In this document: positions 1 to 10,091 of the stretch, in pieces
How positions within the stretch are numbered: position 1 is the stretch's first letter
Layout: every line of letters begins with the position of its first letter
Source of the DNA: a virus
Taxonomy: Duplodnaviria; Heunggongvirae; Uroviricota; Caudoviricetes
Virus record (IMG/VR): IMGVR_UViG_650377933_000001
Location: 1-40,323 of that record
Length of the DNA: 40,323 nucleotides
Direction: 5' to 3' (one strand)
The notes under the pieces: model-generated
Told to the model about the DNA's origin: nothing
The model's database searches: none
Seen by the model: the letters and a program-made list of their open reading frames with translations, nothing else
Made by a program: the position numbers and the translations under genes

Positions 1-1074
1 TCATTTGTCGATTTCAATTTTGTCCCATTCACGCCCACGACTGTCCCTATACCGCGCCGCCATTGAATCTGATTTATGCCCGAGAAGACGTTGAGCAAAC
101 TTATCGCCAATCTGATTCCGGTATAGCCTCGCCGACAGGCTACGCAGTTCATGGAATGTTGGCGGGTCTCCATCAAATGAGAGTCCAGATACATTTCTCG
201 CCTTTGTAAAATACTTAGATACTGTTTTCGGGGAAAGCGGTTCGTGATGCGTTGATGCAATTATTGTTTCACTGCCGCTGGCCTCCCTGCATTTCTGTAG
301 TGTATCAGCCAATGAGATATTGAGCGCGTCAATCGTTAGCATCAGCGGAATGGCGAGCTTAGTACCTGTTTTACCCTGCTCAATGTGAAGATGGTTGTCG
401 TTTATGTCTGACCATTTCATTCTACATAAATCGCCTACTCTCTGCCCTGTAACGACAGCCAAATCCATTGCCAGCCTCAGCCAGATTGGGAGCGGTTCGG
501 CTGCATGGTAAATCGCGACATATTCATTAGCTGTCAGCCTTGAGCGCCTTACTTCTGACTTTGCTGTGCGGGTTGCTGTTACCGGATTCGTTTCCACATG
601 CCCCTCGGCTATTGCCTCACGAAAAACGTCAACAAGGGTTGACCTGATTAATTTTGCGGAAGCTGCTTTACCTTCTGCTACGTAGGTGTTTAGCATTGCT
701 GCCACTTCTTTCGTTGATATGTCAGTGAGCGGTTTGTCCGGCAATTTTCTTCGGATTACCCTGATTTTGCTGGCGTAGTCGAGTAGAGTTTTCGGTCTGA
801 TACCCCTCTCGCTGAGGATTGTTTCATATCGGTCAAGCCACGCATGAAGAGTGATTGCGTCAGCGCCTTTAATTCTGTCTATCAGTGACTCACGCCTGTT
901 CTCGGATAGCAACTCAATATTGGCCTGAATAGCCTCTGAAACTGCTATCCTTCTGTCTCTGCCTAATCCAAACTCTTTACCCGTCCTTGGGTCCCTGTAG
1001 CAGTAATATCCATTGTTTCTTATATAAAGGTTAGGGGGTAAATCCCGGCGCTCATGACTTCTCCTTCTTCCCAT
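1..1074 (-). CDS. int: Tyrosine integrase, lambda Int family
   Basis: 357-aa translation starting MGRRRSHERRDLPPNLYIRNNGYYCYRDPRTGKEFGLGRDRR, near-identical to my recollection of lambda Int, with C-terminal HELRSL...LLGH...Y catalytic motifs. Confidence 0.95.
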   Translation of the reverse strand: MGRRRSHERRDLPPNLYIRNNGYYCYRDPRTGKEFGLGRDRRIAVSEAIQANIELLSENRRESLIDRIKGADAITLHAWLDRYETILSERGIRPKTLLDYASKIRVIRRKLPDKPLTDISTKEVAAMLNTYVAEGKAASAKLIRSTLVDVFREAIAEGHVETNPVTATRTAKSEVRRSRLTANEYVAIYHAAEPLPIWLRLAMDLAVVTGQRVGDLCRMKWSDINDNHLHIEQGKTGTKLAIPLMLTIDALNISLADTLQKCREASGSETIIASTHHEPLSPKTVSKYFTKARNVSGLSFDGDPPTFHELRSLSARLYRNQIGDKFAQRLLGHKSDSMAARYRDSRGREWDKIEIDK

Positions 1075-5735: not shown

Positions 5736-5884
5736 TTCCTGCGATACCACGGAAGGTTGATAGCTGATTTCATCGCTTTATTTGCTTCAAGCCACATTTT
5801 TGAATCACCAATAAATCTGGCTATTACTGCTTTGTTCTGTGCAGCACGAAGCATCTGGTGATTGATGGCTATTTCATTGCGCAT
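5732..5884 (-). CDS. kil: Kil-like host division inhibitor (50 aa)
   Basis: Manual translation MRNEIAINHQMLRAAQNKAVIARFIGDSKMW... resembles the lambda Kil core as I recall it; lies just downstream of cIII as in lambda/P22. Confidence 0.5.
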   Translation of the reverse strand: MRNEIAINHQMLRAAQNKAVIARFIGDSKMWLEANKAMKSAINLPWYRRK

Positions 5885-6000
5885 AATAAGACCTCAACTC
5901 TTTTCCATCCGTCACGTAATTTACGGGTGATTCGTTCAAGTAAAGATTCATTTAATTGGAAGGCACCCATGCGAGCGCCTCCCGCGATTGCGTAAATCAT
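5869..6000 (-). CDS. cIII: CIII protein (FtsH inhibitor, 43 aa)
   Basis: Manual translation MIYAIAGGARMGAFQLNESLLERITRKLRDGWKRVEV...; the ESLLERITRKLRDGWKR stretch matches the lambda CIII core. Confidence 0.7.
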   Translation of the reverse strand: MIYAIAGGARMGAFQLNESLLERITRKLRDGWKRVEVLLCAMK

Positions 6001-6024
6001 GGGTGGTTCCTTATGTTGGTTTTA

Positions 6025-6993
6025 TTAGTAGGTTATTTTTGTTGCGAATACTTCGCCTTTTACGATGGCTGTTATGATATTTTTAGCAACATCTTCTGAT
6101 GCGCCAACCTTGATAAGGTCAGCAAGTATTTTGTTATTTACTTCTTTCCGGTGAGCTTTATCCTTTGCTCTACACTCTTCCTCTTCCTTGATTCTTTTTT
6201 CTTCTGCTATTCTGGCTTGCTCTTTTGCTTCAGCCTCGCGCCGGATTCGTTCAGCCTCCTCCTGTGCTTTTCGGCGTTCTGCTTCAATTGCCGCCTGCTT
6301 TTCTCTTTCAGCTCGTTCTGCTGCCTCTTTTGCTTCGCGCTGTGCTCGTTGCTCGGCTTCAATGCGTTCACGCTCTGCACGTTCCGCTGCGGCCTTAGCT
6401 TCTGCTTCTCGCCTTGCTGCTGCTTCAATTTCGTCTTTTGCCTTTGCTTCGGCTTCTGCTCTGGCTTTCTCTTCAGCTTCTCTTTTTAAGCGTTCTTCAT
6501 GCTCTCGCTTTTCCTGCTCCGCTTTGAGTCTTGCCTCTTCTCTTTGGCGGTCAAATTCGCGATCCATCAAAATAGCTATTTCATGGTCAGACTCAATTTG
6601 CTTTGCGAGAGCTTCAGCTGCTGCCTTAGCTTCTTCTTCGGCTTTAATCCGCGCCCGTTCTTCCTCATAATCAGTAAGAGGCTGGCGTGCCTTGGCTTTC
6701 AGCTCATCAAGGCGATCACGCACTGTCTTGCGGTTAGCATCAATTAGCTTTGGAATTTCCTTCAGTTCAGCAACAAGGTCTTTGCCAAGACCATCGAGAT
6801 ATGTTTTCGTCTGCGCAACTTTATACGCCAGAGAAGCGATCTCCTTTCTGCCCTTTGCCGTTGTGATATCAGGCACAAAGGACATAACTTCACGTTCAAC
6901 CTTTTGAAGGATTTCTTCAATCTGGTCGGCAGACTGAAATACAGTCATTGCATTTGCTTTTTCAATAACAACTAAATCTGTTACTTCACTCAT
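6025..6993 (-). CDS. Hypothetical E/A/K/R-rich coiled-coil protein (322 aa)
   Basis: ORF-track translation; GGAGGA RBS; structured N-terminal ~120 aa, then ~180 aa of low-complexity AEAEAKA/ERAERE repeats, then a short C-terminal domain. No family assigned. Confidence 0.6.
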   Translation of the reverse strand: MSEVTDLVVIEKANAMTVFQSADQIEEILQKVEREVMSFVPDITTAKGRKEIASLAYKVAQTKTYLDGLGKDLVAELKEIPKLIDANRKTVRDRLDELKAKARQPLTDYEEERARIKAEEEAKAAAEALAKQIESDHEIAILMDREFDRQREEARLKAEQEKREHEERLKREAEEKARAEAEAKAKDEIEAAARREAEAKAAAERAERERIEAEQRAQREAKEAAERAEREKQAAIEAERRKAQEEAERIRREAEAKEQARIAEEKRIKEEEECRAKDKAHRKEVNNKILADLIKVGASEDVAKNIITAIVKGEVFATKITY

Positions 6994-7003
6994 ATATCCT
7001 CCG

Positions 7004-7034
7004 TCAAAAAATTGCCCTCACACTGGAGGGCAAA
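7004..7034 (-). terminator. Rho-independent terminator (minus strand) upstream of the 322-aa gene
   Basis: Minus strand TTGCCCTC-CAGTGT-GAGGGCAA followed by TTTTTTG, ending a few nt before the RBS of the gene starting at 6993. Confidence 0.5.
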
Positions 7035-7165
7035 GAAGATTTCCAATAATCAGAACAAGTCGGCTCCTGTTTAGTTACGAGCGACATTGCTCCGTGTATT
7101 CACTCGTTGGAATGAATACACAGTGCAGTGTTTATTCTGTTGTTTATGCCAAAGATAAAGGCCGA

Positions 7166-7789
7166 CTATGCGGCCTCGGAAGGAAGTCCAATCATCTTAT
7201 TCAAATCTTCTACCCGTAAAGCAGGAAGTGCTGTACTTGCTTTATCTGCTTCTTTTGGTAGCAATTCTTTGCTTTCAGGCCAAACTTCAATAAGTCGCTT
7301 AACTGTTGTGACTGAGTTTAAAGCAGCCCATACATTTGATTCGATATCCTTTTTCTTGGCTTCAAGTTTTTGTTGCAATGCGCAGATTTCATCAAACCTT
7401 TTTGTTATTTCGTGCTCTGCGTCAAACATGCATTTATCTTTGGTCGGAGTAGGGAGCAATATATCTTCGCCGTTGCCGTCTTTCCCATATGAATGCCATC
7501 CAACCCTTCTGCCAGATACAGTCAGATAAATTGAAGTAGAACGAACATCGCATGAGTAAAATGAACATCCCAGTTTTTCAAGTTCTTCACTTATAGCTAC
7601 TAACTTGGAATATAAATGATCCACTTCCTCAGTTTTCTTTTTACCGCCAAACGCAATAACTCTGGCGTCAAGTGCAAGCTGGTTCTTTAACTTTGTTACT
7701 TCTTCAAGTTCAGTGAAAACCCCAGACTTAATTAAAGCGTTACGAGCGATTTCCTCTTTCATTCTCGTAGTTAAGCGGATTGATGACAT
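7166..7789 (-). CDS. Hypothetical protein (207 aa), pL-operon accessory gene
   Basis: Start chosen at MSSIRLTTRMKEE with GAGG 8 nt upstream; no recognisable catalytic motif by eye. Confidence 0.55.
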   Translation of the reverse strand: MSSIRLTTRMKEEIARNALIKSGVFTELEEVTKLKNQLALDARVIAFGGKKKTEEVDHLYSKLVAISEELEKLGCSFYSCDVRSTSIYLTVSGRRVGWHSYGKDGNGEDILLPTPTKDKCMFDAEHEITKRFDEICALQQKLEAKKKDIESNVWAALNSVTTVKRLIEVWPESKELLPKEADKASTALPALRVEDLNKMIGLPSEAA

Positions 7790-7999
7790 ATTAATTCCTC
7801 TCAAATAAGTGGTTTGCTGCCTAATTTCATTTTCTGGCGACCAACACAAGTCACACCCATTTCACTGCGTGGCTTGCGGTAGTAAAGATTGTGCCTGTCT
7901 TTTAACCACATCAGGCTCGGTGGTTCTCGTGTACCCCTACAGCGAGAAATCGGATAAACTCTATTCACCCCCTACAGAGAGAATGATGGAGATTCACCG

Positions 8000-8539
8000 A
8001 TGAGTAACTGGTGGCAGGAACTATTACGTTTCTTCCTGCGTGGTCTTACGCTACAACAGTTAATTCATATGCTTATTATTTTAATTGCCTTGATAATAAT
8101 CACCCCTGCATCAATTAAAGAGTGGGTAGATATAAGGAACCCAGAAATACTTCCAGATCACTGGATGTATTACGCAATGCTTTTGTGTATCAGTTATGTT
8201 CTGAACAGGGTGATGGAGTTTATATTTCTGGCATCTTCAGACAAATATAAAAAATATCTCAGTAAGAGAGATGAGGCTAAAGTAATTGTGGAGACTGAGC
8301 GCCTGTTCAATTCTCTGAGTATTCAGGAAAAAGAGGTTTTAGCATTTGCTGTTATGGCAAATAACAAAATCGTACTTAAGCACGGCGATCCGGTCGCTTT
8401 ATCTCTTATGAGAAAAGGCCTTCTCCATCGCTCAGGTGTGACTTACAGCGCGTCAGGTAAAGAGAAATTTGTTATACCTGACGTCTGGTTCCATGAGTGT
8501 TATATGCGCTTTGCTGGTAAAGCTGATGAGCTAATTTAG
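8000..8539 (+). CDS. sieB: SieB-like superinfection exclusion protein (179 aa)
   Basis: Plus-strand gene antisense to the pL operon immediately left of N, the position of sieB in lambda/P22; hydrophobic N-terminal segment; GGAG 9 nt upstream. Family call is from position and general resemblance, not alignment. Confidence 0.5.
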   Translation: MSNWWQELLRFFLRGLTLQQLIHMLIILIALIIITPASIKEWVDIRNPEILPDHWMYYAMLLCISYVLNRVMEFIFLASSDKYKKYLSKRDEAKVIVETERLFNSLSIQEKEVLAFAVMANNKIVLKHGDPVALSLMRKGLLHRSGVTYSASGKEKFVIPDVWFHECYMRFAGKADELI

Positions 8540-8581
8540 TTCCTCGACGGCGGGGGATCGTCACCTCGCTGTCAGTTGTTT

Positions 8582-8833
8582 TTATTTCCGGTAGCCTGCC
8601 GCGTAAATGGCTACATTTGGCAGGCAAACACTTCCACTGCATTCATCTGCCTTCTTGCAGCGAAGGGTTCCTAGTGATGCTGCTTTATCTGCTCTGACGC
8701 AACCAGAGAGCTTTAGCGCAATCTTTCGCGCCAGTCGCTGTTCTTGCATTGCCTGTTCACGTTGAGCCTGTCTGCGTGCTCTGCGGCGATTTCTGGCGTT
8801 ATCGTCAGCCAGATATGTAATGACTACTGTCAT
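8582..8833 (-). CDS. N: N-type transcription antiterminator (P22 gene 24-like)
   Basis: 83 aa with N-terminal arginine-rich motif NARNRRRARRQAQREQ and C-terminal ...LPNVAIYAAGYRK resembling recalled P22 gp24; GGAGG RBS; first gene downstream of pL/nutL. Confidence 0.7.
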   Translation of the reverse strand: MTVVITYLADDNARNRRRARRQAQREQAMQEQRLARKIALKLSGCVRADKAASLGTLRCKKADECSGSVCLPNVAIYAAGYRK

Positions 8834-9232
8834 GTTGACCTCCGATGAAACAACTTTGGAATTTTTTTATTACAAAGTGGTTTCCTTCCCCGCCAATTAG
8901 ACGGGGATGGAAGAGCATTTATGAGCCTTTATGGACTCTGCTCGATCAGTTCTATTTAATTAATCTCTCAACTGAATGTAAGTATTCACATAAATCCTCC
9001 TACCTCTTGTGCAGCTTTCTTGAATATGGTGGCGGCTGCATAACGCCTATGGAATTGACTTTGGCGATTGGATGGCCGGTGCTGAACTCCGGCTTACTGG
9101 TTAGAGCGCCCGCACTACCAGTGACGCTGTCTTGAGGCGCAGATTGGTTACTGCTTGCCATGAGCGCTGTTTATACATTGGTCGAGCATCAGCCTGCTCA
9201 TTCATCCAATCCCAAAGCCAACTACTCTTTGG

Positions 9233-9276
9233 TTCCCGCATTTCGGCGGGACAATCCCATCAATGTTAAAGAGCCT
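9233..9276 (-). promoter_or_regulatory. nutL (boxA GCTCTTTAACA plus boxB hairpin CCCGCCGAAATGCGGG)
   Basis: Minus strand reads GGCTCTTTAACATTGATGGGATTGTCCCGCCGAAATGCGGGAA; the same boxA and boxB occur at nutR on the plus strand. Confidence 0.55.
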
Positions 9277-9312
9277 GACAATCTGTTCCGTTTGGCTTCC
9301 AGCGTCCTGCTG

Positions 9313-9400
9313 ATGGCTTAAATTTAAGATCTCTTTAATTAATGGTCAAGAGTATTTTTGAAGAAAACTTAAATTTTCTTTCGTAACTTAAGTTTGGCTT
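9313..9400 (-). promoter_or_regulatory. pL promoter with P22-type oL operators
   Basis: Minus strand -35 TTGACC (plus 9344-9349), 17-nt spacer, -10 TAAATT (plus 9321-9326); operator ATTTAAGATCTCTTTAAT at 9322-9339 between -35 and -10; further AAG/CTT half-site-like repeats up to ~9400. Confidence 0.5.
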
Positions 9401-9417: not shown

Positions 9418-9445
9418 AAAAAAAAGGGGCGAATGCCCCCTTATG
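9418..9445 (-). terminator. Rho-independent terminator after the repressor gene
   Basis: Minus strand GGGGGCATTCGCCCC followed by TTTTTTTT immediately after the c2 stop. Confidence 0.5.
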
Positions 9446-10091
9446 GAAGGTTTGCTAGTTTTGCATCGACAACTACGCCGATGATTTTGCAGTTTCCGTT
9501 GATCTCGATCATCGGATATTGTGGGTTAAGTGGTTTTAGAAACTTCCTGCCTGCATCAATAACTAACTTCTTGAAAGTTGCCTCGTTTTCTCCTTCGAGC
9601 TTTGCAACTACCAGTTTCCCGTTACGCGGCTCTACTTCAGGATCGACGAGTATTATCATTCCTTCAGGGATACTGAGACCGGCCGGAGCCGTCATTGAGT
9701 CTCCCTTCACGTCCAACCAAAACGAATCTTCTGAACAGTCTACGGTTGTATCGTACCAGTTATCTATTGCACGCTTATGATATGGTTCTACAGCTTCCAT
9801 CCAGCATCCTGCGCTCACCCAGCTAATCAGAGGGTATGACCCTCTTGGATCATGCCTACTGTGATAGGCAATGTTTGAAAGACTTTCCTCTCCTTTCATC
9901 AGATAGTCAGGGGAACACTTCAACGCATTAGCCAGGGCGAGAAGATTCTCTCCATTTGGCTCTGTCTCAGAGCGTTCCCACTGAGATATGGCAACATTAG
10001 ACACGCCGACCATCTTTCCAAGTGCGGCCTGCCTGATCTTGAGTTCTTTTCTCCGAGCGCGAATGCGCTCTCCCATCAATTGAGTTTTCAT
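9441..10091 (-). CDS. c2: Prophage repressor, P22 C2 type (HTH plus S24 LexA-like autopeptidase domain)
   Basis: 216-aa translation MKTQLMGERIRARRKELKIRQAALGKMVGVSNVAISQWERSETEPNGENLL... near-identical to recalled P22 C2; start codon abuts OR3, implying a leaderless pRM transcript. Confidence 0.95.
   Translation of the reverse strand: MKTQLMGERIRARRKELKIRQAALGKMVGVSNVAISQWERSETEPNGENLLALANALKCSPDYLMKGEESLSNIAYHSRHDPRGSYPLISWVSAGCWMEAVEPYHKRAIDNWYDTTVDCSEDSFWLDVKGDSMTAPAGLSIPEGMIILVDPEVEPRNGKLVVAKLEGENEATFKKLVIDAGRKFLKPLNPQYPMIEINGNCKIIGVVVDAKLANLP

Follow-up and report, generated by a model that had tools for sequence, protein, structure and literature searches.

The window analysed here comprises positions 1 to 40,323 of the IMG/VR record IMGVR_UViG_650377933_000001 of a Caudoviricetes virus. 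Its leftward early operon carries a gene, nmad5, and the features that surround this gene are listed in Table 1. The sequence-only reading had placed a 207-aa minus-strand gene here, and it is a real ORF that starts with an ATG behind a good RBS. A start at an upstream TTG (7849, 227 aa) finds no support, as the homologues all begin with M-S/T-S-I/V-R-L-T, the RefSeq CDS has exactly the length of the shorter ORF and the homology in 11 related loci ends at 7809, downstream of the TTG. The RBS lies inside every homology block of the related loci, including the blocks that end at 7809. The encoded protein has a calculated mass of 23 kDa and a pI of 6.4.

Table 1. Features of the window around nmad5 (positions in the window).
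Feature	Position	Strand	Basis and remarks
322-aa protein gene, Glu/Arg/Ala/Lys-rich	6025..6993	-	phrog_1376; next gene downstream, outside the cassette
Predicted intrinsic terminator UUGCCCUC-CAGUGU-GAGGGCAA, then UUUUUU	7006..7033	-	downstream end of the cassette
Long hairpin, stem of ~20 bp	7084..7131	-	22-nt arms 82% complementary; -24.9 kcal/mol, z -6.3
G+C-rich 7-bp hairpin, stop codon in the loop	7158..7177	-	terminator-like in scan; -11 kcal/mol, z -2.9
nmad5 CDS, 207 aa + stop	7166..7789	-	ORF list; 624 nt; ATG 7789-7787, stop TAG 7166-7168
RBS GAGAGGA, 6-nt spacer to nmad5 ATG	7796..7802	-	direct sequence reading
Remnant 3' end (33 codons, ending ...RKPRSEMGVTCVGRQKMKLGSKPLI*) from another N allele	7804..7902	-	now the nmad5 leader
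sieB-family gene	8000..8539	+	PF14163, E 3.7e-20; phrog_1301; antisense to the operon
N antiterminator gene, 83 aa	8582..8833	-	PF25694, E 7.4e-12; phrog_271; upstream, same operon
nutL-like boxA GGCTCTTTA, then boxB-like hairpin	9275-9267	-	sequence; putative role by analogy with lambda
pL-like promoter TTGACC-17-TAAATT	9349-9321	-	promoter scan; presumed source of nmad5 transcription

The 207-aa product matches the Pfam family PF18757 (Nmad5) over its full length with an E value of 8.6e-71 and 238.7 bits against a cut-off of 27; residues 4-203 align with profile positions 1-206 of 206 as a single domain. The protein also belongs to phrog_1965. RefSeq names the 624-nt CDS "Nmad5 family putative nucleotide modification protein", a product present in 210 of 5426 complete E. 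coli genomes (3.9%), and the UniRef product names likewise read Nmad5. Hundreds of records from phages and E. coli contain copies 95-99% identical to that of the window. Judged by its sequence, the gene is already known: it is a member of the Nmad5 family and is so named in public annotation. It had previously been described as unassigned and as having no motif that could be named. The profile match and the RefSeq name contradict the former and the end-to-end Pfam alignment the latter, and the sequence-only reading had itself named a profile match to a known family as an outcome that would refute it.

At 50% identity the family falls into 2311 clusters. Almost all are single-domain proteins of ~200 aa, and nearly all of the best 150 representatives measure 190-220 aa, as does the window protein. 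Only six plasmid records contain Nmad5, all non-mobilizable, which suggests a phage-specific family essentially absent from plasmids. When genome contigs were searched with a narrower Nmad5 alignment, eight loci were found, mostly in Xenorhabdus and Photorhabdus. With the window protein as query, NCBIfam gave no match, PADLOC gave no defence family at E values up to 1, and a PDB sequence search gave no match even with a 60-member profile. The family name reportedly originates from Iyer et al. 2013.

The nmad5 reading frame is open in all 81 related lambdoid loci, and pN/pS among 42 alleles is 0.36, with most of the variation at third codon positions. At the sequence level this shows an intact, functional gene under purifying selection. 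The possibility that the ORF arose by chance or is a non-functional remnant in decay has a negligible probability and is already refuted by the curated-family match, the conservation of the open frame under purifying selection, the RBS and the confidently predicted fold (see below); the degraded remnant that the sequence-only reading had allowed for does not describe this gene.

The homology block around nmad5 ends sharply on both sides when 80 related IMG/VR loci are compared. Its downstream end lies at 7006-7008 in 36 loci, just beyond the terminator, and at 7118-7136, within the long hairpin, in 18; its upstream end lies at 7809, 7853 or 7881-7886. The neighbours change from locus to locus, with N directly, a Nun-like gene or sieB on the upstream side and cIII, the 322-aa gene or others on the downstream side. 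In these lambdoid and P22-like relatives the block measures 0.65-0.9 kb and always lies between N and cIII, a setting also supported by the annotated maps of mEp235 and Kapi1. The comparison shows a self-contained cassette in which a leader precedes nmad5 and a structured 3' end with an intrinsic terminator follows it. The proposal that the locus is an accessory cargo slot is thus borne out by the tight homology boundaries, the differing neighbours and the N-cIII location, and the synteny comparison that had been recommended does place the cassette in a variable segment. In lambda and P22 the N-cIII variable segment of the pL operon carries the early anti-restriction gene ral. Ral occupies the same slot as Nmad5 of the window, but it has ~66 aa (PF11058) and is related to Nmad5 neither in sequence nor in structure, so that the likeness is positional only.

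The gene had been described as lying directly after N and divergent from a sieB-like gene. It is indeed the first sense-strand gene after N, but the two are ~790 bp apart and the antisense gene, a member of the SieB family, lies in between. The N stop codon precedes the nmad5 ATG by 11 nt in 28 relatives and by 61 nt in another 14, together most of the relatives. The history of the longer spacing in the window can be read from the 99-aa N of one relative (L072), whose residues 1-64 match the window N (8833-8642) at 95% and whose residues 67-99 match window positions 7902-7804 at 79%; this type of N is the one that stops 11 nt before nmad5 in the 28 loci. A sieB segment of ~740 bp now stands between the window N on one side and its former 3' end and nmad5 on the other. 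A functional tie between nmad5 and sieB is unsupported, the adjacency being confined to this window and a few relatives. On the other side, the 322-aa gene has no Pfam family and is the next gene after nmad5 in just 18 of the 81 loci. An N4-like phage has a 328-aa gene behind its Nmad5, with which the 322-aa gene was also compared; an equivalence was rejected, as the two are without similarity and the 328-aa one encodes a PD-(D/E)XK nuclease.

The claim that nmad5 is an early gene of the leftward operon is supported by its sense orientation and by the pL-like site as the only promoter-like sequence. A consensus scan and inspection by eye revealed no convincing sigma-70-like site on the minus strand of the 210-bp divergent spacer (7790-7999). 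It is very probable that nmad5 has no promoter of its own, that pL drives its transcription along with that of N early in infection or induction and that it is silent in the prophage, although silence in the lysogen is not proven by a scan limited to consensus promoters. The 9-bp inverted repeat reported downstream of the stop codon was found as described (GTGTATTCA and TGAATACAC at 7094-7102 and 7113-7121). Since the window has 10 such repeats against ~3 in shuffled sequences, the repeat alone is weak evidence, yet it forms the core of the long hairpin, for which none of 200 shuffles was equally stable. This hairpin has no U tract and is therefore not a classical terminator. The hairpin of the predicted terminator (7033-7012) has eight pairs, five of them G-C, and is followed by a T6 run (-13.2 kcal/mol). 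A search of positions 6900-9400 against Rfam gave no family.

The predicted structure of the window protein is of high confidence (pLDDT 93, pTM 0.84). In a Foldseek search against the PDB nothing scored better than an E value of 0.6 and a TM of 0.3, and the structural matches in BFVD were solely other Nmad5 proteins (probability 1.00). Of the remote-homology and structure checks recommended earlier, the former led to a known family by profile, but the latter gave a model without a solved-fold match. Conservation was mapped over 149 diverse members, 25-35% identical to the window protein. The residues conserved in at least 80% of them, and most in at least 90%, are R5, R43, G48-G49, G93, T162, L166, W170-P-E172, P178, L196-N197 and G201-L-P203, all of which are present in the window protein. 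The conserved residue types are R, G, T, W, P, E, L and N, and a conserved Asp, His or Cys catalytic set was not found across the 149 members. The protein may be an elongated helical bundle with a variable beta sub-domain at one pole. The other pole, which we deduce from the order of secondary-structure elements rather than from coordinates, would be highly conserved and would consist of the N-terminal strand (R5), the turn that joins helix 2 to helix 3 (R43, G48, G49) and a C-terminal mini-domain (T162, L166, W170-P171-E172, E175, P178, L196-N197 and G201-L-P203). Its make-up of two Arg, a Gly-Gly turn, Trp, Asn, Glu and Thr would suit a nucleotide or small-molecule pocket equally well, so a catalytic or ligand-sequestering role is conceivable.

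The genes within four positions of Nmad5 were examined with Pfam in 25 diverse groups. The most frequent neighbours were a DUF2800 nuclease, DNA polymerase A and CI-type repressors (five groups each), followed by an Enc34-type ssDNA-binding protein, a helicase and PD-(D/E)XK proteins (four each) and AAA_24 (three). No aGPT-Pplase, kinase, glycosyltransferase or methyltransferase was detected by Pfam near Nmad5 in the 25 groups, and a single Thy1 was. In individual phages, nmad5 lies between the ThyX and exonuclease-primase genes (an N4-like phage), just before the O replication protein (Vibrio phage Athena1) or after the helicase-primase (phage eiAU), and in the window Erf, SSB and Abc2 follow it in the same operon. 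Yuavirus (M6-like) phages and Bordetella phage LK3 have nmad5 between aGPT-Pplase1 and thymidylate synthase/hydroxymethylase, in a thymidine hypermodification cluster, and in the N4-like Ithacavirus it adjoins ThyX. In Dhillonvirus and Vibrio phage VchM-138 it forms an isolated island on the opposite strand within structural modules. These arrangements suggest that replication and recombination genes surround most members, with base-modification neighbours in only one or two clades. The replication and recombination neighbours may just mirror the status of nmad5 as an early gene, since genes of these two kinds abound in early regions.

Base-modification genes were also sought directly by tblastn with aGPT-Pplase, 5-hmdU kinase, the radical-SAM enzyme, thymidylate synthases, deoxynucleotidase and ThyX as queries. 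Nothing was found in the window, and among 169 fetched loci the hypermodification set was present in two (Yuavirus-type) and ThyX in three (N4-like). A Pfam scan of ten window ORFs from the left arm and the nin region gave ordinary lambdoid genes only. By these searches the base-modification association behind the Nmad5 name does not extend to the window, a result that bears on the name and not on homology.

Two groups of distant relatives are informative. Nmad5 of Yuavirus SN1 and PAC5 and of Bordetella LK3 is ~27-31% identical to the window protein over the full length and is also encoded in an early or replication region, but there it clusters with aGPT-Pplase1, a kinase, a radical-SAM enzyme, a PLP enzyme and a hydroxymethylase, which tblastn did not find in the window. 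Nmad5 of the Dhillonvirus phages SM_S22 and SM_A8 shares with the window protein the PF18757 domain, the N-terminal RLT...I..N motif and the C-terminal region T-x-K-K/R-L-I-x-x-W-P-E ... L-N-x-x-x-G-x-P. It differs in having ~30% identity, 254 aa and an insertion of ~47 aa in the variable beta sub-domain, and its gene is located in the head module of a virulent siphovirus, whereas that of the window is in the early operon of a temperate phage. Tmn-escape mutants of Dhillonvirus are the only source of functional data on Nmad5 members (Yamashita et al. 2025, PMC11846954); the authors read the K-to-E escape as a gain of function and call Nmad5 "a DNA modification enzyme". The mutated K216 of SM_A8 (K296 of SM_S22) aligns with R165 of the window protein, which places the escape site between the invariant T162 and L166/W170-P-E, in the proposed conserved pole. 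As RIIB is the Tmn trigger in T2, T4 RIIB was considered as a distant relative of Nmad5 and rejected (hhalign probability 0.3%). Gp41 of N4 (202 aa) agrees in size and position with the Nmad5 gene of the N4-like phage UTK0001, lying after the DNA polymerase and gp40 and directly before the gp42 exonuclease and primase; profile comparison gave a probability of 0.3%, and gp41 is at most a positional analogue.

The explanation that we prefer, tentatively and at somewhat below even confidence, is that Nmad5 is a non-catalytic early binding protein and not a base-modifying enzyme. Its conserved pole would bind a conserved partner or ligand during replication and recombination of the phage DNA, and in lambdoid phages the protein would be a dispensable accessory to this phase. 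As an abundant early protein it may also be touched by host immune sensors, compare the Tmn-escape mutation of Dhillonvirus. That it would be a true modification factor, either an enzyme, an obligatory subunit or a specificity factor, is suggested by the Pfam and RefSeq name, the hypermodification cluster of Yuavirus and LK3, the ThyX gene next to nmad5 in Ithacavirus and a conserved pole that could be a nucleotide pocket. This appears improbable given the lack of partner genes in the window by tblastn and their rarity among the 169 loci, the 25 diverse groups devoid of such Pfam families bar the one Thy1, the ordinary lambdoid character of the ten scanned ORFs and a protein with neither a catalytic residue set nor an enzyme-like fold. 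Protection of the lysogen by a prophage-expressed exclusion or defence moron like sieB, at which the sequence-only reading had hinted, is far less probable still. The gene does adjoin sieB in the window, the cassette ends with its own terminator as morons do, and the slot carries an exclusion gene in relatives (the Nun-like gene of mEp235 and Kapi1). Such a moron should have a promoter, however, and the consensus scan found no promoter-like site upstream; nmad5 is oriented in the pL sense and follows N by 11 nt in relatives, PADLOC gave no match, and the family is well represented among strictly virulent phages.

A counter-defence or host-takeover factor, carried as a portable module in the lambda Ral slot and neutralising or evading host immunity, is the rival that we take most seriously, though on balance we consider it rather unlikely. 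In the accessory-region analysis of Silas et al. (bioRxiv 10.1101/2023.04.06.535777) the N-cIII interval, home of ral, scores highly as a variable segment, and the sharp homology boundaries and changing neighbours of nmad5 are those of a hypervariable segment between conserved anchors. The opposite-strand islands of Dhillonvirus and VchM-138 are of a kind often seen for accessory genes. One K-to-E substitution lets Dhillonvirus escape Tmn and a deletion does not, and the authors could not clone the gene owing to apparent toxicity (PMC11846954). Presence in only 3.9% of complete E. coli genomes marks nmad5 as dispensable for lambdoid phages in general, so that an accessory or counter-defence role fits at least equally well. 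However, the gene is conserved in core replication regions of virulent genera (N4-like and M6-like phages), the family is very widespread for an anti-defence gene, these being typically patchy, and plasmids are essentially without it. Searches by sequence and fold found no match to known inhibitors, and the pI does not suit a DNA mimic. The 200 accessory genes in the screen of Silas et al. (bioRxiv 10.1101/2023.04.06.535777) do not include nmad5, and their gene table contains no Nmad5 peptides; their orf184 from the Ral region was considered and rejected, its model having ~110 residues.

For the window itself these results are of small importance, the cassette being common and already annotated. 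Their weight lies at the level of the family, which has more than 2300 clusters and a confidently predicted fold without a solved relative and is the site of the only known Dhillonvirus escape mutations against Tmn. The neighbourhood data suggest that annotators are misled by a family name that goes back to a single gene neighbourhood. A bolder form of the binding-protein explanation, which we regard as unlikely, is that "Nmad5" is a misnomer for a non-enzymatic early protein of tailed phages, of new fold, whose conserved pole docks onto the replication and recombination machinery, or onto a sensor such as the Tmn-type NTPases that watch this machinery. If this were true, lambdoid phages would have turned Nmad5 into a portable module directly behind N, and the contact equivalent to R165 would decide whether the host senses the phage. 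The lambdoid phages that carry the cassette (mEp235, HK542 and Kapi1) offer an easy genetic system for the function of Nmad5.

The protein encoded by nmad5 (minus strand, 7789 to 7166) is a full-length match to the Pfam family PF18757 (Nmad5, "nucleotide modification associated domain 5"), with an E value of 8.6e-71 and a score of 238.7 bits where the gathering score is 27. The sequence-only reading had called the gene unknown and devoid of any motif that could be named, but the profile search assigned it to this family and it already bears the public product name "Nmad5 family putative nucleotide modification protein"; it also matched phrog_1965, a family listed without known function. We are confident that nmad5 is a genuine Nmad5-family gene. 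It belongs to an annotated family and is usual content for such phages, the window as a whole being a P22-like E. coli phage related to CUS-3, IME10, HZ41, and Kapi1. Of 5426 complete E. coli genomes, 210 carry the same coding sequence under the Nmad5 name (RefSeq), and 383 phage records, including mEp235, HK542, Kapi1, and many Stx1a-converting phages, carry nmad5 DNA that is 96-98% identical. The reading frame is intact in all 81 related loci, and the 42 alleles vary most at third codon positions, with a pN/pS of 0.36. Judged by these patterns of variation, nmad5 is clearly a functional gene and not the degraded remnant that had been considered.

The nmad5 ORF ends at 7166 and encodes 207 aa from the ATG at 7789, which is preceded by GAGAGGA with a spacer of 6 nt. 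The longest mechanical ORF starts at a TTG (7849) and encodes 227 aa, the form annotated in one public record (Kapi1). Three lines of evidence favour the ATG over this start: homologues in other genera all begin with M-S/T-S-I/V-R-L-T, the RefSeq CDS is exactly 624 nt long, i.e., the ATG form, and 11 related loci resemble the window only as far as 7809, so that the TTG lies outside their homology. An antisense ORF of 133 aa (7128-7529, plus strand) overlaps the gene and is open in 81/81 related loci; since the DNA of these loci is 95-99% identical, its openness is most simply a by-product of the conservation of the sense gene. The match to a group of Stx2a-converting phages was limited to residues 34-207 (94%), with two matching places per record, which suggests that the N-terminus of Nmad5 was replaced or disrupted in that lineage.

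The AlphaFold model of the protein, with 149 diverse homologues in the alignment, is a confident one, with a pLDDT of 93 and a pTM of 0.84 (see table). The residues kept in at least 80% (most in at least 90%) of the members 25-35% identical to the window protein are R5, I14, A18, G23, R43, G48, G49, and G93 in the first half, T162, L166, W170, P171, E172, E175, L176, P178, L188, and P189 in the second half, and L196, N197, G201, L202, and P203 at the C-terminal end. No acidic, histidine, or cysteine set of an enzyme type is conserved in this diverse alignment. The up-and-down order of the helices should bring the N-terminus, the 47-49 turn, and the whole chain beyond residue 158 together at one conserved pole of the predicted bundle, an argument from topology and not from coordinates. 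The opposite pole would then be occupied by the beta sub-domain, whose length is variable (about 47 aa are inserted in Dhillonvirus).

Features of the nmad5 region of the window and of the predicted Nmad5 protein (protein features in residues)
Feature	Position	Strand	Basis or remark
SieB-family gene, sieB	8000-8539	+	PF14163
N gene	8582-8833	-	PF25694
CI-type repressor gene	9441-10091	-	ORF; cro and cII also lie beyond N
pL-like promoter	9349-9321	-	upstream of N
nutL-like boxA and hairpin	9275-9242	-	upstream of N
Hairpin with nmad5 stop codon in loop	7177-7158	-	folding of 3' region
Long hairpin	7131-7084	-	folding of 3' region
Classical intrinsic terminator, then U6	7033-7012	-	terminator scan
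Short strand	N-terminus		AlphaFold model
Three helices	8-22, 24-46, 50-72		AlphaFold model
Small beta sub-domain	83-122		AlphaFold model
32-residue helix	127-158		AlphaFold model
C-terminal mini-domain, short helices	163-200		AlphaFold model

The borders of nmad5 were determined by comparison with 80 IMG/VR loci that harbor a near-identical copy. The homology block has tight ends on both sides. On the downstream side 36 loci lose homology at 7006-7008, just beyond the terminator; on the upstream side 11 loci do so at 7809, 16 at about 7853, and 41 at 7881-7886. The gene upstream is N itself, a Nun-like gene, or sieB depending on the locus, and the gene downstream is cIII, a 322-aa gene, or others. 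These tight borders and changing neighbours support the earlier proposal of an accessory cargo slot, and we are confident that nmad5 belongs to the N-cIII slot as a mobile cassette. The same segment is occupied by ral in lambda and received one of the highest variability scores for accessory regions in enterobacterial phages (Silas et al., bioRxiv 10.1101/2023.04.06.535777).

Both neighbours named by the sequence-only reading, N and an antisense sieB-like gene, were found, and its placement of nmad5 immediately downstream of N describes the usual layout of the cassette, with 11 nt from the N stop to the nmad5 ATG in 28 relatives and 61 nt in 14. It is only loosely true in the window, whose sequence reveals the origin of its own layout. 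In one related locus (L072), residues 1-64 of the 99-aa N match the window N at 8833-8642 (minus strand, 95%) and residues 67-99 match 7902-7804 (minus strand, 79%), so the stretch directly upstream of nmad5 is a relic of 33 codons from the 3' end of an L072-type N allele. The segment of about 740 bp in between holds an alternative N 3' end and sieB, and the window N gene looks as if it had been split by recombination. The reading was thus largely right in what it observed and half right in its interpretation, the cargo slot standing and the claim that the gene could not be assigned falling.

The 9-bp inverted repeat reported after the nmad5 stop is present (GTGTATTCA at 7094-7102 and TGAATACAC at 7113-7121). 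By itself it is unremarkable, since 10 perfect 9-bp repeats (spacer 3-20 nt) occur in the window, compared with about 3 after shuffling, but it forms the core of a 20-bp hairpin (7084-7131; -24.9 kcal/mol, z -6.3). This is one of three hairpins in the 3' region (7185-6995; overall z -6.3), and an Rfam search of 6900-9400 matched no family. In 18 related loci homology to the window breaks at 7118-7136, within the long hairpin, which may mark a favoured site of recombination between modules or just an alternative cassette end. No promoter was found between sieB and nmad5 by consensus scan or by eye. Transcription of nmad5 from pL together with N is very likely in view of its orientation, the 11 nt that separate it from N in relatives, and the terminator that closes it; the gene would then be expressed early and be silent in the lysogen.

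The interest lies in the Nmad5 family rather than in the window copy. The name derives from gene neighbourhoods. Such a neighbourhood was confirmed for M6-like Yuavirus and Bordetella phage LK3, in which Nmad5 lies between aGPT-Pplase1 and thymidylate synthase/hydroxymethylase; other phages show different settings. The order in N4-like Ithacavirus is DNA polymerase, DUF6378, ThyX, Nmad5, PD-(D/E)XK nuclease, and primase. Nmad5 is directly ahead of the O replication protein in Vibrio phage Athena1, behind the helicase-primase in phage eiAU, and an isolated opposite-strand island within structural modules in Dhillonvirus and VchM-138. Among genes up to four positions from Nmad5 in 25 diverse IMG/VR groups, Pfam identified DUF2800 nuclease, DNA polymerase A, and S24 repressors (5 each), Enc34-type ssDNA-binding protein, helicase, and PD-(D/E)XK (4 each), AAA_24 (3), DUF3799 (2), and Thy1 (1), and no aGPT-Pplase, kinase, glycosyltransferase, or methyltransferase. 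Phage N4 itself encodes gp41 (202 aa, 5739-6347 of the N4 locus) between gp40 and the gp42 exonuclease; it equals Ithacavirus Nmad5 in size and place but has no detectable homology to the family.

The sole experimental handle on Nmad5 is the escape of Dhillonvirus phages from the host defence system Tmn by K216E (SM_A8) or K296E (SM_S22) in Nmad5, whose deletion gave no escape and which resisted cloning (Yamashita et al., PMC11846954). Comparison of both genomes showed that SM_A8 Nmad5 has 254 aa and that the CDS annotated in SM_S22 has 80 extra codons, which makes K296 and K216 the same position. This lysine, the second K in NTDKKLIKAWPE, corresponds in the alignment to R165 of the window protein, flanked by the invariant T162 on one side and L166/W170-P-E on the other, which would place the escape mutation within the predicted conserved pole. 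The over-extended SM_S22 CDS (PP627283, 361-1365), which is also longer than that of BF9, overlaps an opposite-strand scaffold gene. In phage T2 the Tmn trigger is reported to be RIIB, called a replisome-associated early protein by the authors (2026 preprint); Nmad5 was rejected as a RIIB relative, no relationship being found.

We tentatively favour, at somewhat less than even chances, a non-catalytic early protein that would engage a conserved partner or ligand via its conserved pole while the phage replicates and recombines its DNA, and that lambdoid phages would be able to do without. Its main rival is a dedicated counter-defence protein. In favour of this are the N-cIII slot, the way the gene behaves as a cassette, its isolated, island-like position in two phage groups, and the fact that Tmn escape is a gain of function; we consider it doubtful, given the conservation of Nmad5 in core replication regions of entire virulent genera and its near absence from plasmids (six records with the family, every one non-mobilizable). 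The two readings overlap, since a replication accessory can also be the target of an immune sensor. A true role in base modification, as the name implies, is unlikely in this phage, as no partner enzyme was detected by tblastn: hypermodification proteins matched in only 2/169 loci, both Yuavirus-type, ThyX in only 3/169, all N4-like, and neither in the window. Ten window ORFs from the left arm and nin region had ordinary lambdoid functions in Pfam (Abc2, DUF2737, Ea22, DUF551, NinB, NinX, and antirepressor among them). Poorly supported or refuted are a prophage exclusion gene, which we regard as very improbable, and a non-gene, to which we give practically no credence.

Leftward of nmad5 the operon runs on with the 322-aa gene, cIII, kil, erf, ssb, and abc2. 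The 322-aa gene (6025-6993, minus strand) follows nmad5 in 18/81 lambdoid loci. Its product is rich in Glu, Arg, Ala, and Lys, matched phrog_1376 (listed without known function) and no Pfam family, and is probably a coiled-coil; in another locus (L155), a homologue of 313 aa is encoded three genes downstream from a divergent Nmad5. A G+C-rich hairpin (8546-8573) that separates sieB from N where their 3' ends converge has a T run behind it on the plus strand only and is probably the sieB terminator. The N leader, from the nutL-like site to the start codon (8834-9266), is unusually long (about 400 nt) and contains small ORFs on both strands, e.g., one of 96 aa at 8845-9135 (plus strand).
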